UHGV virus genome: UHGV-1332848
From: a virus
DNA: 64,000 bases
Strand: one strand, 5' to 3'
The notes under the pieces were generated by a model, which saw only the letters and a list, made by a program, of their open reading frames with translations, was not told the DNA's origin and did no database searches. This document shows, one piece after another, positions 7,698 to 63,222 of the stretch; position 1 is the stretch's first letter, and every line of letters begins with the position of its first letter. A program made the position numbers and the translations under genes.

Positions 7698-8851
7698 ATG
7701 AAAGTTATTAAAAGAGACGGAACAGATGTAGATTTTCAAAAGGAGAAAATAGAAAATGCAATATTTAAAGCTATGAAAAATGGTAGTGGTGTAGTAAAGG
7801 AGAAGATTGCACAAAAGATATCAGAAGAAATACAACAATCTGCAATAAGTGTTCTATCAGTATCACAGATAGAAAAAATGGTTTATGATCTGTTAATTAA
7901 ATATAAACAAAAAGATACAGCTAGAGCATATGAGAGGTTCAGGGCAGTACAAGAATTTAAAAGAAATAATAATACAACAGACGAAAGTATACTAAGTCTT
8001 TTAAATAAAACTAATGAAGATGTTGCTAAAGAAAATTCCAATAAAAACTCAGTTATTGCGTCTACTCAAAGAGATTTGATAGCAGGTGAAGTTTCAAAAG
8101 ATATAGCAAAAAGAAAACTTATTCCAACACATATAGTTCAAGCACATGAAGAAGGGGCAATCCACTACCACGACCTAGATTATGCAATACAAAATATTTT
8201 CAATTGTTGTTTAATAAACCTACAAGACATGCTTGATAACGGGACGGTGATTAATGATAAATTAGTCGAATCACCAAAATCCTTTAGTACAGCATGTACA
8301 ATAACAACTCAAATAATGGCTCAAGTTGCAAGTAATCAGTACGGTGGACAAAGTATAACTATTGCACATTTAGCTCCTTATTTAAGAAGAACAAGAGACA
8401 AAGCATTTAAACATTATTATAATGACTTAGGCTTTGATGTTGAAACTTCTAATAAATTATCTAAAGATATAATGATGAAAGAACTTAAAGATGGTGTTCA
8501 GACTATAAGATATCAGCTTTCAACATTACAAACTACTAACGGTCAAGCTCCATTTGCAACTATTTACCTTGAAATTGATGAAGGTAATGAGTATGAGGAA
8601 GAAATGGCTTTGATTTGTGAAGAAATGATAAAGCAAAGATTAGAGGGCATGAAAAATTATAAAGGACAAGAAATAGGAGAGGCTTTCCCAAAACTTGTTT
8701 ATTTATTAGATGAACACAATTGTCTTGAAGGTGGAAAATATGACTACATAACTAAATTATCAGCTAAGTGTACAGCAAAAAGACTTGTTCCAGACTATCA
8801 GTCGGCAAAAATTATGAGAATGAATTATGAAGGAAATACTTTCCCACCGAT
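7698..8851 (+). CDS. nrdD: anaerobic ribonucleoside-triphosphate reductase NrdD, exon 1
   Basis: N-terminal ATP-cone (VIKRDGTDVDFQKEKIENAI); RBS AAGGGAGG. The ORF frame runs into a stop at 8858, just after the inferred 5' splice site (U8851). Confidence 0.75.
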
Positions 8852-9737
8852 AAACTAAAACTGTCGCATATAGTAGTGATATTATATGAAAACCCATCTA
8901 AACGGAGAAAGTCCTATATAAAGGATAACTCACCGTACTAAATTGTTGAATATTTAAAAATTAATTAAATAGGAGGTGTTATATTGTGGAAAGATATTCA
9001 AAATTGGGAAGATTTATATGAAGTTAGCGATACTGGGGAGGTTAGAAATAAATTATCCAATAATTTATTAGTTGGTGATATTAATAACGCAGGTTACTAT
9101 CGTGTATGTTTATATAATAAGAACCACATACCGCCAAAACAAAGGTTCTTTAGACATAGACTGGTGGCAAAACATTTTATAGATAACCATAAAAATCTAC
9201 CTCAAGTAAACCATATAGATGGTGATAAATCAAATAATTCGATGAATAACTTAGAATGGGTTAGCCCAAAAGAGAATGAAATACATAGTAGAAAAGTTAT
9301 TGGCGTAAAAGAATATAAACCATTTGCTGTAGTTTTTGATAATGGTAAAACCATTGTTTGTAATTCAAAATCAGAATTAAGCAATGAAATTGGGTTAACA
9401 AAAACTTCTATAAAAGAATGGTTGCATAAAGGTAACACCGGTTATTTAAAAAGAGGGATTAAAGATATATACTACATATAAAGTAAAAGTATTCAACATA
9501 AAAGTCTAAAGACTAACGAAAACAATTAATAGAGAAACACTATTAAGGGAATGAGTAGTGTAGAGCCACAAGCTTATGGTGGTAAGGCACGGGAGATAAG
9601 ACCTTTTAAATCGAAACGATGGGGCTCTTATCAATGGTAACAGTTGTAAGAGTGTGATATAGTCTAATATCTTATGGTAACATAAGGAAGTTCATAAGAG
9701 AACTGTACAACAGTTGCGATGTTGTATGAATATTATG
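8852..9737 (+). mobile_element. group I self-splicing intron interrupting nrdD, carrying a homing-endonuclease ORF
   Basis: Splicing U8851 to G9738 gives ...FPP-M-GCRSHVG...GRFNQGVISLNLPQIA. This matches, from memory, the conserved NrdD block (E. coli ...SPMGCRSFLG...GRNNLGVVSLNLPRIA). Intron ends in G (9737) and exon 1 ends in U. A structured GC-richer RNA segment lies at 9481-9737. Confidence 0.65.
8984..9481 (+). CDS. HNH homing endonuclease (NUMOD4 + HNH_3), intron-encoded
   Basis: NUMOD4-like WEDLYEVSDTGEVRN. HNH core VNHIDGDKSNNSMNNLEWVSPKEN. Own RBS AGGAGGTG. Confidence 0.85.
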   Translation: MWKDIQNWEDLYEVSDTGEVRNKLSNNLLVGDINNAGYYRVCLYNKNHIPPKQRFFRHRLVAKHFIDNHKNLPQVNHIDGDKSNNSMNNLEWVSPKENEIHSRKVIGVKEYKPFAVVFDNGKTIVCNSKSELSNEIGLTKTSIKEWLHKGNTGYLKRGIKDIYYI

Positions 9738-10701
9738 GGGATGTAGATCACATGTAGGATGTGGTTGGAAAGATGAAAATAACAACTATAAGTTTTACGG
9801 AAGATTTAATCAGGGTGTAATATCGTTGAATTTACCACAAATAGCAATTCTATCTAATGGAGATATTGAAACATTTTGGGATATACTTGACCAAAGATTA
9901 CAACTGTGTAAAGAAGCATTATTGGTTAGACATAATCATTTAATTGGAACTCTTTCAGATGTTTCACCTATTCATTGGCAACATGGAGCAATAGCCAGAC
10001 TAGATAAAGGAGAGAAGATAGATAAATTACTGCAAAATGGTTATTCTACACTTTCATTAGGGTATGTTGGTGTATGCGAGATGACATACGCTATGTTAGG
10101 TGTAAGTCATACGACACTTGAGGGTGAGAGGTTTGCTTTGGAAGTAATGAATCATATGAATGAAGCATGTCAAAAATGGAAAGATGAAACTGGATTAGGC
10201 TTCAGTCTATATGGCACTCCAGCAGAAAATTTAATATATAGATTTTGCAAACTAGACAAGCAAAGGTTCGGTAATATACCAAATGTAACAGATAAGTTAT
10301 ACTATACTAATTCTTATCATGTTCATGTTTGTGAAGAAATAGATGCATTTAGTAAATTAAAATTTGAATCTCAATTCCATAACATAAGCCTAGGTGGATG
10401 TATTTCTTATATAGAAGTTCCTGATATGAGCAAAAACTTAGATGCAATTGAACAAATTATAAACTTTATATATCACAATATACAATATGCAGAAATAAAT
10501 ACTAAACCAGATATCTGTTATAAATGTGGATTTACTGGTGAAATAAAGAATGATGATAACTTAGAATGGTATTGTCCTAATTGTGGCAATAGAGATGAGT
10601 CAGAAATGCAAGTAATGAGAAGAACTTGTGGTTATATAGGGACTAATTATTGGAATAAAGGAAGAACTGCTGAAATAAAAGATAGAGTAATTCATTTATA
10701 A
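9738..10701 (+). CDS. nrdD: anaerobic ribonucleoside-triphosphate reductase NrdD, exon 2
   Basis: Glycyl-radical motif RRTCGYIG near C-terminus; CPNCG zinc ribbon. The table ORF 9826-10701 is the in-frame tail of this exon. Confidence 0.75.
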
Positions 10702-21405: not shown

Positions 21406-21684
21406 ATGGATTTAAAAATAAAAGATAAAGTTATATTCACTAATATGCAAAATGGAAATGAAGAAGTTGGAGAAATACAACTAATTGCACAAGTCACAGA
21501 TTGTGATACTACTGGAATAGTCGGTAAAAATGTTTATTATGTTAGAACTATAACGGGAGGACAACTATTTTTTAGGCAAAACTTAGAAAAATATACAGAA
21601 GGAGTTAAGGATCAATGTCCTTGTATGAAAGAGCCAAGCTATAATTGTGGCATGAAATGTTCAAGATGTGGAAGAGAATTGTAA
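21406..21684 (+). CDS. zinc-ribbon protein
   Basis: CPCM...CGMKCSRCG at C-terminus; RBS GGAGG. Confidence 0.45.
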   Translation: MDLKIKDKVIFTNMQNGNEEVGEIQLIAQVTDCDTTGIVGKNVYYVRTITGGQLFFRQNLEKYTEGVKDQCPCMKEPSYNCGMKCSRCGREL

Positions 21685-21729
21685 TTCGCAATTCAGAAAT
21701 AAGAATAAATTAGGGGAGGAAATGAAAAT

Positions 21730-22014
21730 ATGAATTTAGCAACATTATTTAGTACATTTCAATTAGTAGGAGGTGTAGTTCTGTTTATATCGTATTTACC
21801 GATGATTAAGTTGCTACACACTACAAAATCAGCTAAAAATCAAAGTATTAGTTTTTGGATCATATTAGATGTAGGAATGGTTTTATTTGAGTTAAATGCT
21901 CTATATTTAGCAATTACACTAGGACAACTATCATATGCAATAAGCCAATCATTAAATTTATTATGCGGTATTATTGTATTAATTCAATTATTAATTTATA
22001 GAAAGAATGATTAG
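21730..22014 (+). CDS. SemiSWEET / PQ-loop family 3-TM membrane protein
   Basis: 94 aa with three TM helices. TM1 has a PQ-loop-like motif (LFISYLPMIKLL) followed by TKSAKNQS loop, matching SemiSWEET 'lPQi.k..ktKs..g.S'. Confidence 0.55.
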   Translation: MNLATLFSTFQLVGGVVLFISYLPMIKLLHTTKSAKNQSISFWIILDVGMVLFELNALYLAITLGQLSYAISQSLNLLCGIIVLIQLLIYRKND

Positions 22015-22024
22015 GAGTAAGTGG

Positions 22025-22663
22025 ATGAAGAAATTAAAATTATTTATAGATATGGATGAGTGTATTTTCGACCTTTCAGATGCTATAAGATTAAGAGTAA
22101 ACAAAGACTTTAACAAAAATTATCCGAAGGGATTCAATAAATCTTATTGGTGGTCAGATTATGAAATACCAAAGAAATATTTTGAAAATTTACTAAATCA
22201 AAAAGGATTATTTTTAGATTTGCAACCATATGAATGTGCAATAGAAACATTAACTAAACTACATGAAGAAGGTTATGATATACATATTCTAACTTGCCCA
22301 CAGTACAATGAAACGTGTTTCATAGAAAAAGTATTGTCGGTTAAAAAATACTTACCATTCATAAATATAGAAACTAATTTTCATACAAGTGGCAATAAAG
22401 GTTTGTTTGCTAAAGAGAATAGAATATTAGTTGATGATAATCCAATTTACATAAACCAATTTAGAGACAATGGTGGCTATGCGATAGTATTCAATCAACC
22501 TTGGAATAAAGAATGTAATGATGCTAGGGCGTTTAATTGGAATGATGTTTATGAGTATATAAAATTATATGATGAAGTTTATAATTTTAATAATACAAAT
22601 GTAAAAGTTAATGTAGATATAAATAATTATAAAAAGTATATGGAAGGAGCTTATCATGAGTAG
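22025..22663 (+). CDS. 5'(3')-deoxyribonucleotidase (HAD superfamily, NT5C-like)
   Basis: HAD motif I LFIDMDECIFD (DxD); family size and downstream blocks match NT5C. Start taken at the second ATG (RBS AGGAG). Confidence 0.7.
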   Translation: MKKLKLFIDMDECIFDLSDAIRLRVNKDFNKNYPKGFNKSYWWSDYEIPKKYFENLLNQKGLFLDLQPYECAIETLTKLHEEGYDIHILTCPQYNETCFIEKVLSVKKYLPFINIETNFHTSGNKGLFAKENRILVDDNPIYINQFRDNGGYAIVFNQPWNKECNDARAFNWNDVYEYIKLYDEVYNFNNTNVKVNVDINNYKKYMEGAYHE

Positions 22664-23273
22664 TAAATTATATTTCAAGTATGGCTGTATGAACTCAAGT
22701 AAATCATTAAATCTTTTAGCAACAGCTCATAACTATGAATCACAGGGTAAAAAAGTATTGCTAATAAAACCAACTTTAGATACAAGGACAGACAAAGGAA
22801 TTATTGAAAGTAGAGTAGGTATTTCTAAAAAATGTATTGATGTAGATAAGGATACTAACTTAATAAATTTATTTAAAATGCATATAAAGTATAATGATTT
22901 AATACATTGTATTTTGATTGATGAAGCACAATTCTTAACGAAAGATCAGGTAAAACAATTAGCAAAAATAGTTGATACATACGATATTCCAGTTCTTTGT
23001 TATGGTCTTAAAAACAGTTATATCGAATCTGAATTGTTTGAAGGAAGTCAAGCACTTTTATACTACGCAGACAAGTTGGAAGAAATTAAAACAACTTGCT
23101 TTTGTGAGGGATGTAATTCAAAGGCTACAATGAATCTTAGGATATTAAATGGTGAAGCCGTATATAACGGAGAAATGATTAATTGCGGAGATACCAAACC
23201 AACAAGCGATTATTATATGCCAGTATGTAGAAAACATTATTACAATCAAATAGGTTATTATAATCTTAAATAA
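22656..23273 (+). CDS. tdk: thymidine kinase
   Basis: P-loop YFKYGCMNSSKS; IHCILIDEAQFLT; DIPVLCYGLKNSYIESELFEGSQALL; VCRKHY. Near-colinear with E. coli Tdk. Confidence 0.9.
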   Translation: MSSKLYFKYGCMNSSKSLNLLATAHNYESQGKKVLLIKPTLDTRTDKGIIESRVGISKKCIDVDKDTNLINLFKMHIKYNDLIHCILIDEAQFLTKDQVKQLAKIVDTYDIPVLCYGLKNSYIESELFEGSQALLYYADKLEEIKTTCFCEGCNSKATMNLRILNGEAVYNGEMINCGDTKPTSDYYMPVCRKHYYNQIGYYNLK

Positions 23274-23428: not shown

Positions 23429-23472
23429 TAAATTAAAAATGATAATTTACATATACTAATAGATTTAATACA

Positions 23473-23516
23473 GAAAGGAGTGAGTTTTACATGCAGGTGA
23501 CTCACTCCTTTCTTTT
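23473..23516 (+). terminator. rho-independent terminator (plus strand) closing the early arm
   Basis: 12-bp stem GAAAGGAGTGAG/CTCACTCCTTTC followed by TTTT. Confidence 0.5.
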
Positions 23517-23670
23517 ACCCAATTTTAGAATCCAGCTCTTCAAGCAAATCTAATAAGCATTTTCTATAGCCCTGAGAATAATTATATGTATTCTCGTTAT
23601 AATTGTCTATTTCATAACTTATTAATTTTTCTTGGAGTTGAGATTTAAATCTTTGTAGTATTAAATCCAT
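23515..23670 (-). CDS. small hypothetical protein (51 aa), not in ORF table
   Basis: ATG preceded by strong RBS AAAGGGGATGGG; has its own downstream terminator. Confidence 0.3.
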   Translation of the reverse strand: MDLILQRFKSQLQEKLISYEIDNYNENTYNYSQGYRKCLLDLLEELDSKIG

Positions 23671-23795
23671 TTTCCCATCCCCTTTATACTATATATAGTA
23701 TTTTTTATTATCAACATCTACAATATGTAGTATTGAAAACTTTTTAAAATAACAATTTTATCTATTTACTTTAACTTTAGTTTATTATATAATTA

Positions 23796-23845
23796 AACTT
23801 ATAATTGATAATATTTTGTTATTTTTATATCAATTATAAGTTTCT
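23796..23845. promoter_or_regulatory. perfect 15-bp inverted repeat AACTTATAATTGATA/TATCAATTATAAGTT
   Basis: seen directly; sits in the convergent intergenic zone. Confidence 0.35.
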
Positions 23846-23857
23846 ATTTTTTTATAC

Positions 23858-23927
23858 AGATAGATTAAACCTAAACAAAGTAAATGCATTATGTGTTGAA
23901 TGTAAAGTTTAATCTATCTTTTTTATT
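23858..23927 (+). terminator. long-loop hairpin terminator
   Basis: 13-bp stem AGATAGATTAAAC/GTTTAATCTATCT followed by TTTTTATT. Confidence 0.4.
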
Positions 23928-24021
23928 GTAATATTAATTATTACGAATATTGGTATCACTAATATCTTTTATATTCGTACTCATATTTTATCGTTAGTGC
24001 GTAATATGTTTCTATTATTAC

Positions 24022-24453
24022 CTACATATTTCTATATTTTATTACCTTTGCAGGAGATCCAACTGCTACAGCGTTATTTGGTATATCTCTAGTAACAACG
24101 CTATTAGCCCCTATTATTACATTGTCGCCAACAATCACATTCCCTATAATTTTCGCACCAGCACCTATTACTACACTATCTCCAATTCTTGGAACTTCCT
24201 TTTGACCTATACTTCCTCCAATAGTTACTTGTTGACTTATCTTACAATTCTTCCCAATGATAGCATTGGGATGCAAAACTATTCCTAACCCATAATATCC
24301 AAAGCTTGTACCTTCTCCGATTTTTGTCTGGTATGGTATAACACATCCGAATACTATTCTCATCAATATTTTTATTAATTTAGGAATTACAGGTATTTTA
24401 TGTTTATATAGAAAATGTGACATATTATACAAATAGTTTATTATTTTAATCAT
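24022..24453 (-). CDS. hexapeptide-repeat O-acetyltransferase (CysE/LacA/NodL family, short form)
   Basis: LYKHKIPVIPKLIKILMRIVFGCVIPYQTKIGEGTSF...IGKNCKISQQVTIGG aligns with the serine-acetyltransferase C-terminal region. Left-handed beta-helix hexapeptide repeats follow. Confidence 0.7.
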   Translation of the reverse strand: MIKIINYLYNMSHFLYKHKIPVIPKLIKILMRIVFGCVIPYQTKIGEGTSFGYYGLGIVLHPNAIIGKNCKISQQVTIGGSIGQKEVPRIGDSVVIGAGAKIIGNVIVGDNVIIGANSVVTRDIPNNAVAVGSPAKVIKYRNM

Positions 24454-24526
24454 CCCCTTTAAAATTCTTATTAATCTTATTCACACCTTCTATTTTACAA
24501 TGTAATTGAATTTGTTACAACTTTTG

Positions 24527-26026
24527 TTATTCTGCATTAAATATAATCTCTTTAGTTATGGTTGCAGTAGATTTATCTAAGAAGCTTGTAGATGCTCTTC
24601 TTACAGTATTTTTTACATTTATAAACTTAATCAAGTTGTGTGTACCTGTTAAATACAACATTGTTGTACTATCATTTGTATAAGTTCCATTCATAATTAT
24701 AGTATTTAAAAATGAAATATCATCAGAACCGCTTGATGATAATAAATAGCTTCCACCAGTTCCATTTATCCATATTGTACAACCAATTATTTTAAATTCA
24801 CATTTGTTATTTATTCCAAATCCCCCGTATGGAGACTTTCCTCTATCGTAATAAATTGAGCAATTTTCAAAGTTGACATAACATTTCCCATTAGAATTCG
24901 TTACCAATCTATTACAGCTATCCTCTATAATTGAATTTCTAATAGTTATTTTAGTATAAGATATACCGTTATTTTCTTTATTAGCTTCTACAAAACTTGA
25001 ATTAACAAGGTTATTAGAGTTGTAAAATACACAATTATCGACTTTAACATTAGAAAGTTCACCTAAAACAATATTTATATTGCTTATGTCAGAATTTTTA
25101 ATGGAAAGTTTAGTTTCCTTATCAGTTGCCCCATACTGAGTCAGTTTTATACCTGCTCCACTAGATATGATAAAACTTCCACTTTTTGAAGTAATAATAT
25201 TAAGATTATCTATAACCGCATCACTTGTTCTAAACACCTCTATTGGATTGAAAGGTAATCTGCTTCCTGTTACTATCATTTTACAATCCTGTAGCTTTGC
25301 ACCACTTATAAATGATTTTTTTCCACTGAATTTAACGGGGGTTTGAGTCGAATTATTTAAATAAGATGGTCTTAATACGTCCAAATCAACAATCCAAGTT
25401 ACATTCTTGTATACTATGTTATGTAAACAAGTTGCATAACCTTGCTGTTGAATTATACAATTTTCTACAAGTAAGTTACTAGCAAAATTAACGACCTCAT
25501 TATCATTTAAACTTCCTATATTTATTACTGATTGGTATGCTTTTCCCTTTGTATAAATATTTTTTATAGTTACATTAAATTCTGTTATTTTTGTACTATC
25601 ATATCTAAAATAAAATAAATCATAAAAATCAGTATCATCTGTGAGTGTTATTTTAGTTGTATCGACCGTAAAGTCTCGATAACTTGAATCATGCATATTT
25701 AAACATTTAAAAATACCACTAACACCATTTGGAGAATTATTATCTAAATATATAACAGTTTCTTCACCAGCACCAATTAAATCAATGTTAGGATAAGCTT
25801 CTATAAAACAGTCTCCTTTAGAAGTTTTAGTTTTAAAATAGTAATTCTCTTGATTAAGTTTTATTTTTCCTTTCTTGCCATTTAAATAATCGTATGCTCT
25901 TTGGAGTCTAGGTGCATCATCCATTTCTAGTGTCAATCGTGGAAACTGATTAATATTTACTGTTGCAATATGTTCCAATGACGCACTATGTTCTTTTATT
26001 TTACTTTCTACTTCTCTGTATAACAT
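24527..26026 (-). CDS. tail fibre / receptor-binding protein with right-handed beta-helix (pectin-lyase-like, putative depolymerase)
   Basis: Asn/Ile/Val-rich repeating beta-helix pattern. First 18 aa identical to protein 30159-31472. Confidence 0.55.
   Translation of the reverse strand: MLYREVESKIKEHSASLEHIATVNINQFPRLTLEMDDAPRLQRAYDYLNGKKGKIKLNQENYYFKTKTSKGDCFIEAYPNIDLIGAGEETVIYLDNNSPNGVSGIFKCLNMHDSSYRDFTVDTTKITLTDDTDFYDLFYFRYDSTKITEFNVTIKNIYTKGKAYQSVINIGSLNDNEVVNFASNLLVENCIIQQQGYATCLHNIVYKNVTWIVDLDVLRPSYLNNSTQTPVKFSGKKSFISGAKLQDCKMIVTGSRLPFNPIEVFRTSDAVIDNLNIITSKSGSFIISSGAGIKLTQYGATDKETKLSIKNSDISNINIVLGELSNVKVDNCVFYNSNNLVNSSFVEANKENNGISYTKITIRNSIIEDSCNRLVTNSNGKCYVNFENCSIYYDRGKSPYGGFGINNKCEFKIIGCTIWINGTGGSYLLSSSGSDDISFLNTIIMNGTYTNDSTTMLYLTGTHNLIKFINVKNTVRRASTSFLDKSTATITKEIIFNAE
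25971..26026 (-). repeat. 56-nt direct repeat copy B (47-nt identical core) = 5' end of beta-helix fibre gene
   Basis: TGTTCCAATGACGCACTATGTTCTTTTATTTTACTTTCTACTTCTCT is identical to 31417-31463. Confidence 0.9.
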
Positions 26027-26041
26027 TCGTCATTCACCTCC

Positions 26042-26317
26042 TTATTCCTTAGCCAAGATCACAATTTTGCAGTTCATAGGCTCACCATTGTAAATCTTTA
26101 TTGTATTTGAATCAATTATTTCTATATTATTCATTGACAGGGAAGTATTATCTTTAAAAATACTAATTGTCAAATTATCAGTTCTTAAATTATGAGTTAC
26201 ATTAGTTGTATATTCATTTCCAATCAAAGTCCAATCAGATATAATCACATTCTTAATTGACTGTTTTATATTTCCTCCTCCAGAGAATATGCCGAATCTA
26301 AAATCATTTATAAACAC
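26042..26317 (-). CDS. hypothetical protein (91 aa)
   Basis: ORF tightly upstream of fibre gene. Confidence 0.4.
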   Translation of the reverse strand: MFINDFRFGIFSGGGNIKQSIKNVIISDWTLIGNEYTTNVTHNLRTDNLTISIFKDNTSLSMNNIEIIDSNTIKIYNGEPMNCKIVILAKE

Positions 26318-26325
26318 ATCACCAC

Positions 26326-26619
26326 CTACATTCCTAACAAGATATCATAATTAGTTCCTACAGGAGCTTTAATTTTTAAACTAACCCAAGGAACAAAATT
26401 ATCTAAAATAACAGATTGACCACTTTTAATTTTTATACTTGAAATGCTATTATTTATAGTTCCAACAAATTCACAGTCAGCATCAGCCCAAAGAGTAGCA
26501 TAATAAATATAATTTTTATCATACTTACCTTTAAATAATTCTTCTTCAGCAGAAGTAGTAACTCCGTATTTTTTAATTAATTTTTCATATTGGGTATTAA
26601 AATGTATTAAATTTGCCAA
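26326..26619 (-). CDS. hypothetical protein (97 aa)
   Basis: ORF with RBS. Confidence 0.4.
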   Translation of the reverse strand: MANLIHFNTQYEKLIKKYGVTTSAEEELFKGKYDKNYIYYATLWADADCEFVGTINNSISSIKIKSGQSVILDNFVPWVSLKIKAPVGTNYDILLGM

Positions 26620-26768
26620 AAACCCACCTACTTTCTTAAATTTTAAAAATTCACACCTCCAAGAATGGCTATATTACTAGCTTTCAGGAGTTGAATTTAT
26701 TTATAAAATGTTGATTTTAACAATTGTATCAAAATAGGGTAGAGAGTTAGCCCTACCCGTAAAAATTA

Positions 26769-27239
26769 TTAAACTTGATATTTAACTTCAGCTAAAACTT
26801 CTTCTATTTTCACCTCGATATATGAATTTATATCTTTTATTCCACCATTTAAAATATCTAACGTCCCATCTGTTAGTTGATTTAATACATTTTCTTTTAC
26901 TTGAACAGCAAGGTGTTTTAATTCTTCCTTGTCAATCTCTCCATCAAGCATAGCCTTTTCAATTAATTCTTTCTTAAGTGTGTTTTCCATAGCGATTATA
27001 TTTGTTTGAATTAATTTTTCAGTTTTCTCTATAGCGTTATTAAACATAGCCTGAACTCTTTCGTCTTCTAGTCTAGCAACCTCGATTTTAGCCTTTTGTG
27101 TAGCCTTAGCAACCCATAAACCAATATAAGCAGTAGCAATAGCGATAAGACCTCCTAAGACAACTGATAGTAATTGTAAAGCACTTTCTTGTAACATTTC
27201 CATTGTAAAATCCCTCCATTTAATTATTTTTATTGACAC
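26769..27239 (-). CDS. holin-like membrane protein (single N-terminal TM + coiled coil; LL-H-type)
   Basis: TM LLSVVLGGLIAIATAYIGLWVA then charged coiled coil; resembles Holin_LLH architecture. Confidence 0.4.
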   Translation of the reverse strand: MSIKIIKWRDFTMEMLQESALQLLSVVLGGLIAIATAYIGLWVAKATQKAKIEVARLEDERVQAMFNNAIEKTEKLIQTNIIAMENTLKKELIEKAMLDGEIDKEELKHLAVQVKENVLNQLTDGTLDILNGGIKDINSYIEVKIEEVLAEVKYQV

Positions 27240-27357: not shown

Positions 27358-27675
27358 TTATTTATCTAATTTATTTTTTATATCAGTTACATCTTTTTTA
27401 ATTTCTTCCATAACGTCAAACTTATCAGCTAGATCAGAAATTATTTCTTGATTTTTATTTATAATATCCTGATTATTGTTTATTATCTCTTGGTTCTTGT
27501 TTATCGTATTTTGCATTTTTTCTTCTCTATTTTTACTTTCCAGTTCCCTTTCCCTACTTTCTTCTCTAGTATCCTCAACAAGTTTGTTATAGTCTTTTCT
27601 TTGATAAAACCACATAATAGCCATCAATCCCAAGATAGGACTAGATTTAAATATATCTACAAACATTGATTCCAT
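27358..27675 (-). CDS. membrane protein with tandem heptad repeats
   Basis: N-terminal TM (ILGLMAIMWFY) then coiled coil with NKNQEII x3 encoded by 21-nt DNA repeats. Confidence 0.4.
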   Translation of the reverse strand: MESMFVDIFKSSPILGLMAIMWFYQRKDYNKLVEDTREESRERELESKNREEKMQNTINKNQEIINNNQDIINKNQEIISDLADKFDVMEEIKKDVTDIKNKLDK

Positions 27676-27804: not shown

Positions 27805-28860
27805 TTATTTCTCAAATAGTTTATTAGCTTCTTCAGAATCGTCTCTTAAATCATAATGATTTGAAGTGGTAGAAATATCATTATGTTGACCAACATATTT
27901 GCTGACTACCTTTATATCTTTACCTTGTTCTAACAAATATGTTATAGCACTAGCTTTAAATAAGTGAGGATTTATTCTTCTGCCTAATATATCTGATAAG
28001 GTATCAGAACAAAAGAAATCAGCCCATTCCAAACCTATTTGGATAACTTCATCTTTGAACTTTTTAGCAAATATATATTTACTTTCAAAACCTCTTTTTT
28101 CTAACCACAACCTACAATACTTCAAAACTTCTTCATTAGCCATATATCTTACACGTTTGCCGTCATCAGATTTACCTTTTTCTCTAACGTAATTTGTATT
28201 AACGAACGTTCTACCTTCTGGAATTTCTTGGTATACAAAACTGGTTTCAAATTGTCTTATTCCTCCACGTCTAGCACCAGTATTAAAAGCACACACAACC
28301 CAAGCTAATCCCATGTAATTTTCATCATCCATTAATGTTTCTTTTAATATTTCATATTCTTCTTTAGAGATAGGTATTTTCTCATAAACATGGTTTTTGG
28401 GAATGTCTTTAAATGCTTTTGTAAAGTTTCTAAAATTCTTATATTCTTCAAAATCATCATCTTCAGCAATTACATCTTCTATATACGCACATAGAGTACT
28501 AACTGATGATTTTTTAAATCTCAAACCTGAACCGCTCATCCCTCTATTTGTTAAATAACTCATATACCTATTAAAATCTCTTTTCTTTATTTTATATAAG
28601 GGTTTATCATTACAAGATGAATATATCCAATATATAAATTGCTTTAATCCTGATATATATTGTCTTTTAGTGGCTGGAGATAGTTGAGGATTCATTTGCA
28701 AAAATTCTTCCATCATATCTCTATTTTCTTTATTACACAAGTTATACATTTCATCCGTTACTGAAGGAAGTTTTAATGCTCTTTCTCTAATCATATTTTT
28801 ATTTATTGTCAAATAAATACCTCCTTTATGTTTAATTTCGCATTTTATTTCGTTTTTCAA
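27805..28860 (-). CDS. tyrosine site-specific recombinase (phage integrase family)
   Basis: C-terminal catalytic region with conserved R (TGARRGGIR), H-x-x-R (HLFKASAITYL) and terminal Tyr (SNHYDL). N-terminal SAM-like core-binding domain. Confidence 0.85.
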   Translation of the reverse strand: MKNEIKCEIKHKGGIYLTINKNMIRERALKLPSVTDEMYNLCNKENRDMMEEFLQMNPQLSPATKRQYISGLKQFIYWIYSSCNDKPLYKIKKRDFNRYMSYLTNRGMSGSGLRFKKSSVSTLCAYIEDVIAEDDDFEEYKNFRNFTKAFKDIPKNHVYEKIPISKEEYEILKETLMDDENYMGLAWVVCAFNTGARRGGIRQFETSFVYQEIPEGRTFVNTNYVREKGKSDDGKRVRYMANEEVLKYCRLWLEKRGFESKYIFAKKFKDEVIQIGLEWADFFCSDTLSDILGRRINPHLFKASAITYLLEQGKDIKVVSKYVGQHNDISTTSNHYDLRDDSEEANKLFEK

Positions 28861-29961: not shown

Positions 29962-30158
29962 TTTCTATTTCAATATAAAATGACTAGCCAAATCAATGAC
30001 TAGTCAAAGTATTTAATTAATTATTTTATTGCGTAATATTTATCAATTTACTAGTAATAACACTTGCTAGGTGAGCTAATTTCCTTATAACTATCATCTT
30101 TATCCCTCGCCTAGCATTATTTTTTATAATAAATAAAAAAGACTAGCTTTCACTACTC

Positions 30159-31472
30159 TTAGATTCCACCACCAAATATTGAATTATAAGCTTCTTCATA
30201 CATCTCTATATGACCATTGGCGTTCGGATGTATTTTATCTTCTTGTAATAATGTTAAATCATTTTTAAAAGTATTAAAGAAGTCTATACAGATAATTTTT
30301 TCTTTAGAGCATAATCGTCTCACTTTATTATTATACTCTATTATCCAAGCCCAACTTTGACTATTTACAGCCGAGGTATTTTTTGTTCTATCCATAGGTG
30401 GGCAAGTACAAACAACTGGAATTGCTCCATTTCCTTTACATTGCCATATAGCTTGTCTTAATTGATTTATTGCTGTATTAATATCAGTACCAGTACCATC
30501 AATTCTTGAATTATTTGTACCACCAAGAATAGTTACTAAATCATAACCTTTAAGTATATTATTAACTACCTGACTTAATATAACTTCCATATTTGAGCCA
30601 CTAACTGCAACATTTTCACTTTGAACTTCTGCATTTAATTCTTTAATTTTATTATATAATAAAGTAGTCCATCGTTCTTCTGTATTTACTCCTGCTCCAA
30701 ATGTTAAGCTATCTCCGACATGAAGAATTTTATCTACTTTGTTAGGTAAAATATCGAATTTATATTCCTTAACCCAAGGATTTTCAAATACTATATTTTT
30801 AATCCATGTATCTATATTTGTAGACCCATTATAAATACCAAATCCAAATAATCCTATACTTTCTCTTAAAGTAAAACAACTTGAGACATCTTCATCGAAT
30901 AAAGCACTCCCATTCATATAAACACTAAATCTAGTACCTATAAATCTAACAGATAGATTTATACCTTCACCATTTTTCGGAACAATTTGATTAACATCAT
31001 AACTAATTGCTTTAGCTCTTTCGAAAGCTCCATTTGTAGTTTTACCTAGCCAAAGTTGTTTAAAATTAAAAAATAATAAGCATGAAAAGTAATCTGTTTT
31101 ATTTTTCCCTTTAAAATTTATTGCTACAGCATTGTTGTCCGTAGAATTTATATCAAATCCTTTTATTGTAACTCCTATTTCACCATCTTGAATTAACTTA
31201 GTCTTATGAAAAATATTCACTCCATGAGTATTAAATTGAGTGAAAGTAGGTTTAAGTGTTTCATCACTGAATATCCAATCGCCCTGTTCTTGATTAGGTG
31301 TTAACCAACAACTTTTTTTCCAATCTTCTTGACCATTAAAAAGATTTATAAATTCTAATTTTGTTCTATTTATTAGACTTGATACATTATTATTTTCTTT
31401 ATTTATAGTATTCATTTGTTCCAATGACGCACTATGTTCTTTTATTTTACTTTCTACTTCTCTATATAGCAT
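30159..31472 (-). CDS. tail protein with C-terminal SGNH/GDSL hydrolase (esterase) domain
   Basis: SGNH blocks I (ILHVGDSLTFGAG), III (ILGGTNNS) and V (DKIHPNANGH). N-terminal 18 aa identical to fibre 24527-26026. Confidence 0.7.
   Translation of the reverse strand: MLYREVESKIKEHSASLEQMNTINKENNNVSSLINRTKLEFINLFNGQEDWKKSCWLTPNQEQGDWIFSDETLKPTFTQFNTHGVNIFHKTKLIQDGEIGVTIKGFDINSTDNNAVAINFKGKNKTDYFSCLLFFNFKQLWLGKTTNGAFERAKAISYDVNQIVPKNGEGINLSVRFIGTRFSVYMNGSALFDEDVSSCFTLRESIGLFGFGIYNGSTNIDTWIKNIVFENPWVKEYKFDILPNKVDKILHVGDSLTFGAGVNTEERWTTLLYNKIKELNAEVQSENVAVSGSNMEVILSQVVNNILKGYDLVTILGGTNNSRIDGTGTDINTAINQLRQAIWQCKGNGAIPVVCTCPPMDRTKNTSAVNSQSWAWIIEYNNKVRRLCSKEKIICIDFFNTFKNDLTLLQEDKIHPNANGHIEMYEEAYNSIFGGGI
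31417..31472 (-). repeat. 56-nt direct repeat copy A = 5' end of SGNH tail protein gene
   Basis: identical 47-nt core plus 3 mismatches in the first three codons; sequence diverges abruptly beyond the core. Confidence 0.9.
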
Positions 31473-31504
31473 TTAATAAAATTACCTCCTTTTGTAATTA
31501 ATTT

Positions 31505-32515
31505 TTATATAGCCAAAGGCGTCATGTATCCATAACACACTGTATCAGTATTCAAATCTTTTGATATATTACTTTTAACAAATAATTTATATCCAGTTGC
31601 ATTATAATCTATAGCACCTGATAAATCACCATATGTGATACTTGGACTTAAATTTTTACCATCTATAGTTCTGTCATTTAAATTAACAACAAATGGATTG
31701 ATTTTACCGTTATATAAATTAAAACTTAATAAAAAAGTAGCTGAATTAAAAGTACCCGGGCTAACAACTCCTCCGATAGATATTAAATATTGCTTATTTA
31801 AAAGATTTTTTGCAGGTTCATTAATTAAGTCAGTTGACAAATAAATGTAATTTGAACCTAAAAGTCTATAAGGATTCAATTTAATTCTTTTGGTTAGCTG
31901 ATAATTTACAACATGGTTAATTCCATTAATGTCATTTTCTAATACATTTATCTCTGTTTGTATATTGTTTTTTAGTTCAACAAATTCAATATTTACATCA
32001 TTAGTTTTTTGAGTAACTAAATCCTTCATATTTATTACAGATTGATTGATATTATTTAAATCACCTCGATAAGAATTTAGTAAATTATTTAACTCTCTTA
32101 ACGTTTCAATATCTTCTCTGGATTCAACAATTATGCCGGTAGCCATTGATTTAACAACATTAACCACGAATCTTTGGAGATTAATAGATTCATCTCCATC
32201 CTCAATTAATAAACAACATATATTTCTACCTTCAACATTGAATATATCAACTCTGGGGTAAAGTTTTACTATACCATTTGGGGCATCAACTATATTTATT
32301 TTTTCTATTTGTTCAAAATATTCACCATTAGATTTTACTCCTACAAACCTGCATGTAGCTCCAGTTATATCTTTAGGCAGATTGTTTTCTTCTATATTTA
32401 TAGTTATCTCAATGCTGTCGCCTACAACTGCAACAAAATCTTTTATACTTAATATGTTTTGTTTGATTGTATCTAATTTTATATTTAACTTTTTTGCTAT
32501 TATATTTTCAGGCAA
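31505..32515 (-). CDS. baseplate / receptor-binding-complex protein (BppU-like N-terminus)
   Basis: N-terminal domain then Asn-rich coiled coil then C-terminal beta domain; position between endolysin and fibre genes. Confidence 0.45.
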   Translation of the reverse strand: MPENIIAKKLNIKLDTIKQNILSIKDFVAVVGDSIEITINIEENNLPKDITGATCRFVGVKSNGEYFEQIEKINIVDAPNGIVKLYPRVDIFNVEGRNICCLLIEDGDESINLQRFVVNVVKSMATGIIVESREDIETLRELNNLLNSYRGDLNNINQSVINMKDLVTQKTNDVNIEFVELKNNIQTEINVLENDINGINHVVNYQLTKRIKLNPYRLLGSNYIYLSTDLINEPAKNLLNKQYLISIGGVVSPGTFNSATFLLSFNLYNGKINPFVVNLNDRTIDGKNLSPSITYGDLSGAIDYNATGYKLFVKSNISKDLNTDTVCYGYMTPLAI

Positions 32516-34407: not shown

Positions 34408-36360
34408 TTAAAAATCACCACCTTCTATTAAAAAATCAGTTGTCATTAAATCAACACCCAAATCCATTTGATCTCTAAATTGCATTATTGATGTGGCACT
34501 GTAAGATATTATTGCAACATTATTATTGTGGGCATACTTAATTAAATCTTCAGTTACATAATTGGTTGGAGTTGATATGAATGAGTTTCCTAAAACTATA
34601 CAATTATCAATATTTGAGTTGCTAATGTTTGCATTATAACCCAACATTATGTTTTTATCTTTATTTCTTATCTCACTCAATAATGTGTAGTTAAAGGATA
34701 AAAATACTACTTTATCTCTAACTTTATATTTGTCTATAATAGCGAAAAGTTTATCGTAATTATATATAGTCCCTTTTAGTTCTAAAAATAAATATTTATT
34801 ATATCTTTGAAGTATTTTTAATAAATCTTCTATTTTGGGTATTCTTAAATCAGTATAATAGGAAGGATTGCCATCGCCCCCATCTATTTTTAGGCTACTT
34901 ATATAATCATAATTTAAATTCTCAACTCTACCAGTTCCATTAGTTGTTCTATCTAACGTATCGTCATGTATTATTACAAATTCGCCATCTCTCGTTTGAT
35001 ATATATCAACTTCAACCCCGAACATCCCAATTTCAAAAGCCTTCTCTACTGCAAATGCTGTATTTTCTGGATATATATGACCTAATCCCCTATGTCCTAT
35101 TAATTTAGATTTGGAATTTTTTATAATATTAAAAAAATCTTTTTTATTTTTTTCATTTATTATATTACCAATCTCAATAGTATTTTCATTGATTCTCTTA
35201 TCAATATCATCAATCTTTTTAGTTAATTTTGTAGTTCCATCCTGCATAAATACTGCATCTGAATCAGTAACTGGATTTTCTAACAAACCATTCCCATCTT
35301 TTAATCTAACTTTTTTTGTATCAACGCCTATACTATCACTAGCAAATTCTTCAACATTAGTTCCAAATAAAGCATTACCTTGATAATAACTAGCCGAAAG
35401 TACCACTTTTATATTTGGGTGTTCAGCACTATTCCTTATTAAAATATTGTTTTTATCAATTATCTTACAATCTGGGAACAACAATTCATCCAAAACACTA
35501 TCATACATAACTACATGTAGTTCTTTACTATTCATATTATGTGTCCAAGTATATTCATTATTTACAAATTGAGATGCTCCAATAATTAAACTTTTATTTC
35601 CTGTTGCATTAATTTTATCTACAGAATCTTTTCCACTCGCAATTGTTTGTTGTAATACCAAGTTTGTCTGTGTTGCCGATTGATTTGTATTTGATAAGGT
35701 TGTGTTTGTATCCGTAGCACTGTCTATAGATTGGTCTAAATCTTTTTTCTTTTGTGTAGCGGTATTGTTTGCATCAACTAGACTAGGTAACAAAGTATTG
35801 CCTTCTTGTATATTTTCTTTCAAATTTGTATTTAATGGTGTTCCTACCCTTATGTCTTCAAGCAAATTTTCATGTAATATAGTACCAGTTTCTATATCTT
35901 TCTCTAATCTTTTTAATATAGTTACAGAATCTCCAAAGAGTTCCAAAGCTCTTAATCCCTCGTATCCTTTATCTATCAACTCTTGAAGTATTCTAACCAC
36001 GTTATCTTTATTTTTATAGAATATTCTATTGGTTGAAAGTAAAGTTACTCCTAATGAGTTGTATCTAAATTCCAGCGTTCTTCCCTTTAAATTAGGATGA
36101 AAATAAATTAGCCCATCTTTTGTTATATAATAATTATTTTCACTCTTATATACATCATCCAAGTTGTCGACTTCCATCATATTATCTCCATCAACTATTG
36201 TCACCCCTTGATATGTTTCTGGTGTACCAGTTAATTGTACGAGGTTTTTATCAGATGAAACTTGTTGTTGTTCCACCATTAATTTAGCATAAGGTCTATC
36301 GTTTTCATCTAAGAACCATCTGCTTATAATGGAGTTTTCATATCTATCCTCTATACTCAC
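34408..36360 (-). CDS. tail-associated glycerophosphodiester phosphodiesterase (GDPD domain)
   Basis: C-terminal IGHRGLGHIYPENTAFAVEKAFEIGMFGVEVDIYQTRDGEFVIIHDDTLDRTTNG is a canonical GP-PDE catalytic block; N-terminal structural domain. Confidence 0.75.
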   Translation of the reverse strand: MSIEDRYENSIISRWFLDENDRPYAKLMVEQQQVSSDKNLVQLTGTPETYQGVTIVDGDNMMEVDNLDDVYKSENNYYITKDGLIYFHPNLKGRTLEFRYNSLGVTLLSTNRIFYKNKDNVVRILQELIDKGYEGLRALELFGDSVTILKRLEKDIETGTILHENLLEDIRVGTPLNTNLKENIQEGNTLLPSLVDANNTATQKKKDLDQSIDSATDTNTTLSNTNQSATQTNLVLQQTIASGKDSVDKINATGNKSLIIGASQFVNNEYTWTHNMNSKELHVVMYDSVLDELLFPDCKIIDKNNILIRNSAEHPNIKVVLSASYYQGNALFGTNVEEFASDSIGVDTKKVRLKDGNGLLENPVTDSDAVFMQDGTTKLTKKIDDIDKRINENTIEIGNIINEKNKKDFFNIIKNSKSKLIGHRGLGHIYPENTAFAVEKAFEIGMFGVEVDIYQTRDGEFVIIHDDTLDRTTNGTGRVENLNYDYISSLKIDGGDGNPSYYTDLRIPKIEDLLKILQRYNKYLFLELKGTIYNYDKLFAIIDKYKVRDKVVFLSFNYTLLSEIRNKDKNIMLGYNANISNSNIDNCIVLGNSFISTPTNYVTEDLIKYAHNNNVAIISYSATSIMQFRDQMDLGVDLMTTDFLIEGGDF

Positions 36361-62376: not shown

Positions 62377-63222
62377 TTAACTAGCTAAATTTACACCATC
62401 TTTATAATGCTTAATCACATCAGAAATATCAATATTCTCTTCATTGCACATAGAAATAATAGTAGCTATTGCATTTGGAATTTCACTATCATCCAACATA
62501 TCAAGTGTTTTTGGTTTAGTTCGCTTTCCAGTTTTATTTAAATAATTCGTAATTCTACTGTTTATATTTATTGAATGGCTATATAATAAATTCTTTTTAT
62601 ATTCAGTCCAAGCACTACCAAAATCACCTTTAGCATATCTTCTAACTAATGCATTTATTAGGTTTCTATTAGCCCAACTAAACACTTCTCCACTCAATAA
62701 TCTTTTTTCAATCGATATAGTTTCATTTTCTAAAAGCAACTTTTCTTTTTCTTCTTCGGCTTCAACAAGCATCAATAGAGCCTCTTTAAAATTGGTCGGA
62801 AGTTTATATTGCTGTTGTTGGATTATTTCTCTCATCCTGAAATATTCTTCTATTATAGAATCCATAACTTCCCACTTCTTATCGTTTGAATTATCCATCA
62901 TTGCAACCAGCTTAGTATATCCTCTTTCAGATAGTAAAAATATATTTTTTGTTCTATTGTTAGTAATTAATCCATTTTCTTTAGCAAAATCTCTTAAACC
63001 TTCTGAAGGTTTTAGAAAATCCTTCAAATCATTATTATTAAATCTGTTGATATTATTGTTTATTAATGTATTTATTTTATCTAGCCTTAAATCATGTTGT
63101 AGTGCAATATCACTAGCTAAAATACATTTTTGATTTTCACCAAAACCACCTTCGACAACTTTTACACTTTTGCCATTAATTTCTTTTGTACCATTAATTT
63201 TGATTAACTCCATATATCTCAT
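62377..63222 (-). CDS. phage antirepressor-like / Bro-KilA-type regulatory protein
   Basis: architecture and position at the head of the late arm; assignment tentative. Confidence 0.4.
   Translation of the reverse strand: MRYMELIKINGTKEINGKSVKVVEGGFGENQKCILASDIALQHDLRLDKINTLINNNINRFNNNDLKDFLKPSEGLRDFAKENGLITNNRTKNIFLLSERGYTKLVAMMDNSNDKKWEVMDSIIEEYFRMREIIQQQQYKLPTNFKEALLMLVEAEEEKEKLLLENETISIEKRLLSGEVFSWANRNLINALVRRYAKGDFGSAWTEYKKNLLYSHSININSRITNYLNKTGKRTKPKTLDMLDDSEIPNAIATIISMCNEENIDISDVIKHYKDGVNLAS

Follow-up and report, generated by a model that had tools for sequence, protein, structure and literature searches.

Why should a phage carry a small acetyltransferase gene directly behind the gene for its tail spike, and what would such an enzyme acetylate? 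This question is raised by the virus genome UHGV-1332848, of which a stretch of 64,000 nucleotides (the 64-kb window) was analyzed, and in particular by the open reading frame (ORF) at positions 24022–24453 on its minus strand, which encodes a protein of 143 amino acids (aa). A preliminary description of this DNA had proposed an O-acetyltransferase that acts in the manner of lysogenic conversion and is paired with an SGNH esterase of the virion, the two enzymes writing and erasing the same mark on a surface glycan. The reading preferred here, which is held with moderate confidence, is that the protein is a cytoplasmic capsule- or exopolysaccharide (EPS)-type O-acetyltransferase, captured from a clostridial locus and tied to the spike, which would acetylate the receptor polysaccharide of the spike.

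The ORF is an intact reading frame, and its product is a left-handed beta-helix (LbH), or hexapeptide, O-acetyltransferase of the short serine-acetyltransferase-like type of cps/eps loci. The Pfam family Hexapep (PF00132) matches with an E value of 5.4e-17 (score 61.1 bits, cutoff 27), and the families found in a Pfam scan were of the LbH type only (Hexapep, Hexapep_2 and LbH_EIF2B). As had been described, this hexapeptide-repeat gene stands behind a beta-helix fibre gene, 73 nucleotides (nt) downstream of 24527–26026. The protein carries a C-terminal motif of the coenzyme A (CoA)-binding type, GSPAKVIK, and belongs to a family of 140–150-aa proteins named 'serine O-acetyltransferase' with 4,361 database matches at E ≤ 1e-5. 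It falls below every NCBIfam cutoff. The best models are EpsC (NF041874; 118.9 bits, cutoff 150) and cysE (TIGR01172; 104.8 bits, cutoff 210.65); WcaB scores 59.1 against 196, and weak matches to the NeuD/PglB, DapD and Vat/CatB models were also obtained. The LacA, Maa, Vat and CatB models match just the C-terminal ∼50 residues at about one-tenth of their cutoffs, with LacA and Maa reaching 36.8 against 347 and 32.3 against 314 over residues 89–140 only. The protein therefore appears, from its sequence, to be a relative rather than an equivalog of EpsC or WcaB.

The window belongs to the contig ENA ERZ807474 NODE_1, which has 130,278 bp and a coverage of 211. In the public annotation of this contig the protein begins at Met11 and has 133 aa. 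A Shine–Dalgarno-like AAAGGGG directly abuts the upstream ATG, and the ribosome-binding site is poorly spaced. The 143-aa form is nevertheless plausible and is favoured over the Met11 start, because Tyr9 is kept in at least 90% of the relatives.

The database label of the relatives, and the fact that the best matches in the PDB are serine acetyltransferases (SATs; E = 5e-20), could suggest a true CysE, that is, an auxiliary metabolic gene that raises cysteine synthesis during infection. This explanation is contradicted by the sequence and deserves practically no credence. The phage protein and CysE have in common an LbH core with a C-terminal CoA-binding segment, and both of these parts align with the Haemophilus influenzae SAT (PDB entry 1SSQ) at E = 5e-18; however, CysE also has an N-terminal domain, an Asp/His dyad, the alternative base His189 and a substrate-binding Asp/Arg pair, none of which is present here. 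In the 1SSQ alignment Val38, Tyr53 and Val87 occupy the places of Asp139, His154 and His189, and Gly52 and Glu86 those of Asp153 and Arg188; mutagenesis has shown that Asp139, His154 and His189 matter for SAT catalysis (cited in PMC3578862). The score with TIGR01172 is far below its cutoff, as is that with PRK11132 (71.8 against 397, covering positions 114–245 of 273), and the homologues are found in cps loci, not beside cysK. The alignment of the N-terminal region with the SAT family that had been noted earlier holds in so far as positions 33–162 of 162 in TIGR01172 and 32–166 of 168 in EpsC are covered, which is the LbH part only, whereas the SATase_N domain (PF06426) itself was not found at E ≤ 0.01 in the Pfam scan. 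Because this domain is missing, the scores are below the cutoffs and the catalytic residues are replaced, the protein is judged not to be CysE. This supports the earlier view of a polysaccharide-type acetyltransferase rather than an enzyme of cysteine biosynthesis.

If the canonical residues are replaced, which residue could act as the base? In an alignment of the 20 nearest relatives, His61 and 19 other columns (Gly46, Thr49, Cys70 and Pro88 among them) are invariant, and all 20 are retained in the phage protein. His61 is thus a candidate for the catalytic base. Tyr53, at the position of the CysE catalytic histidine, is the family norm, being present in 18 of the 20 aligned sequences, including those from bacterial cps loci. 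Furthermore, the SAT-like acetyltransferases of phages divide into sub-types in which a histidine occupies position 53 or position 61, or in which both positions have one.

The genomic context of the bacterial relatives gives an indication of the acceptor. The nearest relatives are 56–64% identical and mostly clostridial, Clostridium perfringens included, and all four of the nearest homologues examined (P0002, P0003, P0006 and P0014; 56–64% identity) are housed in Wzx/Wzy polysaccharide loci. Their neighbours encode Wzz, CpsB, a CpsD-type kinase, a priming transferase, UDP-glucose dehydrogenase, Wzy, Wzx, glycosyltransferases and a heparinase II/III-like protein. Since the homologues lie inside such loci, the phage gene is best read as a captured capsule/EPS O-acetyltransferase. 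The clostridial cps/EPS 'serine O-acetyltransferases' (P0014 of C. perfringens and P0006, a Clostridium MULTISPECIES entry) match the phage protein over more than 92% of the length, and they share with it the size of 140–150 aa, the invariant His61 and the Tyr at the position of the CysE catalytic His. The difference is one of location: the clostridial enzymes sit in chromosomal Wzx/Wzy/glycosyltransferase/heparinase loci, whereas the phage gene sits behind a tail-spike gene in the late arm.

An acceptor unrelated to the receptor of the spike has also to be considered, such as a precursor of teichoic acid or peptidoglycan, a nucleotide sugar for another glycan or, as with the Vat/CatB-type LbH enzymes, a small molecule or antibiotic. 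The LbH superfamily is promiscuous, the weak NeuD/PglB, DapD, WcaB and Vat/CatB matches would be in keeping with such an acceptor, and a GDPD tail enzyme encoded at 34408–36360 points to polymers of the teichoic-acid type as another surface target. However, similarity to antibiotic acetyltransferases is confined to the last 50 residues, which are generic, with 30–32 bits against cutoffs of 300–475; the four homologues mentioned above are all in Wzx/Wzy loci; and an unrelated housekeeping gene would not be expected to be so closely linked to receptor-binding genes in several phages that are themselves unrelated (see below). An acceptor of this kind is therefore quite unlikely.

The connection of the capsule/EPS-type acetyltransferase with the spike was revealed by a sibling phage, the contig SRR25948552_386 from another sample, which shows 97.3% identity across the tail and lysis region. 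The acetyltransferase gene is 100% identical in the two at the nucleotide level. It belongs to a block of 2,196 nt (23573–25768) without a single mismatch, which comprises the body of the beta-helix gene, the acetyltransferase gene and the downstream spacer, and which extends to 26104 if one synonymous mismatch is allowed. Against the background of the comparison (189 mismatch columns in 6,774 nt, ∼2.8%), such a block has a probability of ∼1e-27 under uniform divergence, and its flanks differ from the sibling by 1–18%. In contrast, a segment of 1,464 nt (30031–31494) that contains the whole SGNH gene is replaced by 14 nt in the sibling, in which a BppU gene is followed directly by a RusA-like gene; the same order is found in a more distant relative (L009). 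The spike and acetyltransferase genes are thus inherited as one recently exchanged or swept cassette, and the SGNH esterase is a dispensable addition. Since the sibling keeps the spike and the acetyltransferase in the absence of the SGNH gene, the acetyltransferase is tied to the spike and not to the esterase.

A gene on a mobile cassette could also be an inert or decaying passenger. The Tyr at the canonical catalytic His position, the poorly spaced ribosome-binding site and the choice of Met11 by the gene caller could be taken in this sense, and the identity of the two alleles leaves no signal of selection. However, the ORF is of full length, each of the 20 invariant columns is retained, and Tyr53 is the norm in 18 of the 20 aligned sequences, bacterial cps-locus genes included. 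In addition, the same kind of gene recurs beside receptor-binding genes in unrelated phages. An inert or decaying gene is considered very unlikely.

What, then, are the two tail proteins with which the acetyltransferase might be functionally connected? The first, encoded at 24527–26026 on the minus strand, is a 499-aa right-handed parallel beta-helix protein of the tail-spike/depolymerase type. It gave no match in Pfam or PHROG, and the assignment comes from a structural model (predicted local distance difference test, pLDDT, 84; predicted template modelling score, pTM, 0.86) and a Foldseek search, in which the model matched AlgE6 (mannuronan epimerases), a GH87 glucanase, the polysaccharide lyase RbmB, the tailspikes of HK620, CBA120 and Sf6, and gp12 of phi29. 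The protein begins at a linker helix and lacks the YomF_N anchor of its relatives, two of which, of 721 and 869 aa, carry YomF_N fused to the same body at 75% identity. In a phi29-like podovirus, a 43%-identical beta-helix homologue is encoded after the connector gene, by the last of the genes called.

The second is a 437-aa protein encoded at 30159–31472 on the minus strand, predicted to be an accessory tail enzyme. It matches PF13472 with an E value of 9e-22 (78.8 bits against a cutoff of 32.9), and its model (pLDDT 77, pTM 0.80) consists of an N-terminal helix (aa 2–27), a CBM66-like beta-sandwich (aa ∼50–236, nt 30765–31325) and the SGNH domain (aa ∼248–433, nt 30174–30731). The motif residues GDS253–255, G292 and GGTNN317–321 are invariant, and D412 and H415 are at least 90% conserved. 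In structure comparisons the SGNH domain resembles TesA, the acetyl-xylan esterase Axe2, the peptidoglycan O-acetylesterase Ape1 and a sialate O-acetylesterase, and the whole model resembles many phage tail proteins. The combination of a CBM66-like lectin domain with the SGNH fold bears out, at the level of the model, the carbohydrate-esterase-like architecture that had been suggested. Relatives of this protein fuse its body to BppU_N or YomF_N anchors (576 aa, 79% identity).

The preliminary description had regarded the SGNH protein as fused to a fibre N-terminus. This is correct in that its first 18 residues (MLYREVESKIKEHSASLE) are common to the 499-aa spike; however, the shared part is just a linker helix and contains no recognizable anchor domain. 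At the DNA level the shared 5′ ends form a 74-nt repeat with 88% identity and a perfect core of 45 nt, for which no matches are expected by chance. The copy on the spike gene, corresponding to codons 1–24, is at 25954–26027 (core 25973–26017) and that on the SGNH gene at 31400–31473 (core 31419–31463), both on the minus strand, and these are the only two copies within the window. The identity extends from 2 nt before the ATG to near codon 19, and codons 2 and 3 differ only synonymously. Both proteins start exactly at the conserved linker helix, and each gene has its own strong ribosome-binding site. The tag is similar to the linker native to the beta-helix family, and the spike gene therefore looks like the source from which it was copied to the esterase gene; the sharing of the tag also suggests a docking site common to esterase and spike. 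A stand-alone BppU-type baseplate protein, which consists of BppU_N (PF10651, E = 3e-16) and ∼190 further residues, is encoded at 31505–32515 on the minus strand; that it is the docking partner of the 18-aa tag is a guess. The tag suggests a simple rule by which receptor-binding enzymes may be added to a baseplate of this type, which is relevant to the engineering of host range.

A connection between acetyltransferases and receptor-binding genes was also found outside this lineage. The search of IMG/VR returned 80 matches to the acetyltransferase, many of which cover only the generic C-terminal hexapeptide region; the distant ones (ORFs of ∼185–250 aa), located in metabolic operons with BKACE or a sugar aminotransferase, were not counted as genes of the same kind. 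The loci with near-full-length relatives have no other gene in common with the window. In these, the acetyltransferase directly follows a pectate-lyase-type beta-helix spike (L026), SGNH tail proteins (one in L027, two in L058) or a collagen-repeat fibre (L065). L027 (3004–4384) and L058 (859–4345) share the order of SGNH tail protein or proteins, SAT-like acetyltransferase, and then small ORFs and an endolysin. In the 987-group phages of Streptococcus thermophilus a 'serine acetyltransferase' (gp20 of phage 9871) follows a structural gene of the tail/receptor-binding protein module (PMC6213268), and in the Staphylococcus phage IME1323_01 the acetyltransferase is the last late gene, beside attP. 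The latter two proteins belong to unrelated phage lineages and are 42–48% identical over ∼75% of the length. They resemble the present case in that a small SAT-like LbH gene stands behind a tail/receptor-binding gene or at the end of the late arm, and differ in sub-type: 9871 gp20 has the His at the CysE position and no His61, whereas the IME1323_01 protein has both. Since such adjacency is seen in unrelated loci, the presence of an acetyltransferase beside receptor-binding genes is a recurrent and independent event, with an esterase as the neighbour in two cases.

These two cases bear directly on the proposal that the enzymes write and erase the same mark, with the acetyltransferase as a lock, either against competitors or by lysogenic conversion, and the virion-borne SGNH esterase as the key. 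Both enzymes are encoded in one late arm, the SGNH protein has a lectin and carbohydrate-esterase architecture, the common N-terminal tag suggests a single docking site for esterase and spike, and SGNH tail proteins adjoin related acetyltransferases in the unrelated L027 and L058. Furthermore, SGNH receptor-binding proteins are known to deacetylate receptors, and genes for predicted acetyltransferases are present in 5–30% of Klebsiella prophages per K-locus (PMC13123978; bioRxiv 10.64898/2026.07.31.742079). However, the sibling has the acetyltransferase and no SGNH gene, so that the esterase is not needed; SGNH relatives occur in L012 and L013 with no acetyltransferase in the visible DNA; and the acetyltransferase of L058, adjacent to SGNH genes, and that of phage 9871 are of a different sub-type, without His61. 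The earlier pairing therefore has a counterpart in L027 and L058, whereas in this phage the two genes do not form a unit, as the 1,464-nt indel indicates, and a write-and-erase pair acting on one and the same substrate position is doubtful here. The recurrent adjacency of SGNH and acetyltransferase genes deserves a systematic survey.

The arrangement of the late arm is relevant to the time at which the acetyltransferase would be made. The gene is near the end of a minus-strand arm that also contains the tail and lysis genes. It had been taken for the last gene of this arm but is in fact the penultimate ORF, being followed by a 51-aa ORF at 23515–23670, the true last ORF, and by a strong intrinsic-terminator-like hairpin with 17 pairs and a T run at 23430–23391, which closes the arm on the same strand. 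The 51-aa ORF has a good ribosome-binding site and shows two synonymous and no non-synonymous changes relative to the sibling. No terminator-like hairpin was found in the 73-nt spacer between the spike and acetyltransferase genes (24454–24526, minus strand); it contains a weak promoter-like match (9/12), and promoter-like matches are no commoner than in shuffled sequence. Late co-transcription of the acetyltransferase with the spike is the simplest reading. The AT-rich spacer at 23700–24030, within the block identical to the sibling, folds far better than shuffled sequence (z = −4.7), and contains a perfect 16-nt inverted repeat (23795–23810 and 23828–23843) followed by a run of seven T on the plus strand; the early arm, which converges on this spacer, probably terminates here.

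The suggestion of lysogenic conversion is not supported by the window. No lysogeny module was seen in the 64 kb, and no promoter or terminator of its own is evident for the acetyltransferase. A tyrosine recombinase is encoded at 27805–28860 on the minus strand, amid the tail and lysis genes and between the two copies of the 74-nt repeat; however, it is 51–56% identical to a core gene of SPbeta-like phages (Goe11–14 and SPbetaL), Geobacillus phage E3, Lactococcus phages and other giant siphoviruses, and because it is a conserved core gene of the lineage it is taken as evidence neither for lysogeny nor for fibre switching. A shufflon- or Cin-like fibre switch and an integrative element were accordingly rejected. 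A fibre switch is also disfavoured by the direct orientation of the 74-nt repeats, recombination between which would delete the holin gene, by the presence of just two copies in the window, and by the sibling, which has the recombinase and one copy. In the smaller phage L012, too, a gene for a tyrosine recombinase separates the SGNH fibre gene from the holin gene.

The phage itself is a deep relative of the giant siphoviruses. Its portal and capsid proteins are ∼35% and ∼30% identical, respectively, to those of Sundance, Tsamsa/PBC2, Lactococcus 949-type and SPbeta-like phages, and its early arm is rich in nucleotide-metabolism genes. No close relatives were found in INPHARED by megablast, nor in IMG/VR with the spike, SGNH and BppU proteins, and a scan of GTDB genomes with the portal protein for prophage relatives and a host gave nothing. 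The best clues to the host are the 28% G+C content and the top matches to Clostridium and C. perfringens, which suggest a low-GC clostridial host. The phi29-like podovirus that carries the spike body has capsid relatives whose hosts are Clostridium symbiosum and Hungatella rather than C. perfringens in particular.

The closest analogue is NeuO of the Escherichia coli K1 prophage CUS-3 (PDB entry 3JQY), which is likewise a phage-encoded, cytoplasmic, acetyl-CoA-dependent LbH O-acetyltransferase of capsule, as is proposed here. The neuO gene adjoins the endosialidase tailspike gene of CUS-3. Proximity to the spike is equally a feature of the present gene, with 73 nt between the two and a co-inherited 2.2-kb block, so that in this respect it resembles the phage-borne receptor-modifying enzymes of the NeuO and Oac types. 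There are, however, clear differences. The match between 3JQY and the phage protein covers the generic hexapeptide region only (residues 91–140, E = 1.4e-6), which does not indicate orthology; NeuO exceeds the phage protein by ∼100 residues and its gene contains a heptanucleotide repeat that is phase-variable, whereas no tandem repeat of this kind was found in or before the acetyltransferase gene; its substrate is the finished polymer of an ABC-transporter-type capsule, in contrast to the Wzx/Wzy type of the homologue contexts; and CUS-3 is a proven prophage, whereas no lysogeny module was seen in the 64-kb window of the present phage, the host of which is Gram-positive. Oac, with which a comparison had been proposed, is a membrane acyltransferase-3 protein, and no Oac-type family was detected in the Pfam scan of the acetyltransferase. 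NeuO reduces susceptibility to K1 phages (PMC3046976, PMC13001214).

For the esterase, G7C gp63.1, the petal domain of epsilon15 gp20 and the SGNH fibres of Klebsiella prophages provide the precedents, as these deacetylate O-antigen or capsule (PMC13123978; bioRxiv 10.64898/2026.07.31.742079). The 437-aa protein is similar to them in having the SGNH fold with the full motif and a carbohydrate-binding module on a tail scaffold, and is different in having no detectable sequence homology to them and an 18-aa tag in place of a recognizable anchor. Phage-borne receptor-modifying acetyltransferases and SGNH receptor-binding proteins are thus already known, and a 2026 Klebsiella study notes both in prophages. 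The present case adds an uncharacterized clostridial giant siphovirus, together with two useful features: a natural pair of phages of which only one has the esterase, and the portable 18-aa tag on two tail enzymes.

Taken together with these precedents, the following mechanism is proposed. The phage most probably captured an acetyl-CoA-dependent LbH O-acetyltransferase from a clostridial Wzx/Wzy capsule/EPS locus, and the gene moves jointly with the beta-helix spike gene as one cassette. The most likely role of the enzyme is to add O-acetyl groups to the repeat unit of that surface polysaccharide of the host which the spike binds or cuts; for one C. perfringens phage, capsular polysaccharide is a receptor (PMC6893597). 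The receptor would then be altered on cells in which the phage is carried or replicates, so that related phages would be excluded and less progeny would be lost on debris, as is reported for NeuO and prophage CUS-3 (PMC13001214). The SGNH protein, where it is present, probably strips O-acetyl groups from the surface polysaccharide and thereby gives access to the spike. If the capsule is indeed acetylated, a strategy of Gram-negative phages (NeuO of CUS-3 and Oac of Sf6) would extend to the giant siphoviruses of clostridia, in which phage receptors and capsule chemistry are poorly known.

Several considerations weigh against this proposal. The acceptor is deduced solely from the context of the homologues, and activity presupposes that the invariant His61 is the base, as the canonical LbH catalytic His position is occupied by Tyr. 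The ratio of non-synonymous to synonymous substitution could not be calculated for the acetyltransferase, the two alleles being identical. L009 and L010 carry the same beta-helix body with no acetyltransferase after it; the contig of a further spike relative, P0134, ends at the spike gene itself and thus does not bear on this point. A cytoplasmic enzyme that acts on intermediates of the Wzy pathway would alter the capsule only slowly in a lytic cycle, and the window shows neither lysogeny nor an evident private promoter or terminator for the gene. Finally, the best clues to the host are the 28% G+C content and the top Clostridium/C. perfringens matches.

A more elaborate scenario, an arms race, would combine the cassette and the tag. 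The cassette would acetylate the capsule of cells occupied by the phage, so that it could no longer be processed by the beta-helix spikes of sibling phages. The present phage would have pasted the first 19 codons of its spike gene, as a portable docking tag, onto a foreign esterase body, and its virions could thereby remove that acetyl mark and re-enter populations protected by acetyltransferases, either those of its relatives or those of host cps loci. We regard this scenario as speculative and rather improbable as a whole. The sibling pair (∼97% identical over the region compared) is a natural experiment with and without the SGNH gene, which could indicate whether the virion esterase overcomes exclusion based on acetylation.

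Further features of the tail region were observed. A 650-aa tail protein at 34408–36360 on the minus strand has a weak YomF_N anchor and a GDPD glycerophosphodiesterase domain (E = 2.7e-26); it would be the third enzyme of the tail that is active on surface polymers, and suggests that polymers of the teichoic-acid type are also attacked. Two small ORFs are located just upstream of the spike gene (26042–26619, minus strand), with a match to phrog_13479. The first, of 91 aa (26042–26317), has 31% identity to residues 253–320 of P0133 and resembles an internal domain that the 869-aa relative of the spike has in front of its linker, and the second, of 97 aa (26326–26619), shows seven synonymous changes and one non-synonymous change between the siblings, which indicates purifying selection. 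Both may be pieces of a fibre gene that are now made as separate proteins. The holin gene at 26769–27239, beside the identical block, includes the most divergent segment between the siblings (26750–26999, with 46 mismatches in 250 nt and a 3-nt indel), and a holin-like protein of the BhlA/UviB family is encoded next to it at 27358–27675 on the minus strand.

Where the two arms meet, the early arm ends with genes for TK (thymidine kinase) and NT5C (5′-nucleotidase) at 21527–23273, whereas in the sibling FolD (tetrahydrofolate dehydrogenase/cyclohydrolase) and a 237-aa gene are found (L022, 12753–14287). Because the ends of the early arm differ between the siblings, the junction is a hot spot for the exchange of cargo. 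Scans of the region or window with Rfam, tRNA and PADLOC gave no matches. In the early part of the window the gene for the anaerobic ribonucleotide reductase NrdD is split: ORFs at 7698–8858 and 9826–10701 on the plus strand match the N- and C-terminal halves of phrog_487, and an ORF for a homing endonuclease with NUMOD4 and HNH_3 lies between them at 8984–9481. No Rfam intron family reached its threshold, and the insertion may be either an intron or a free-standing endonuclease that splits the gene. Near the right end of the window, a protein with an ORF6N domain is encoded at 62377–63222 on the minus strand.

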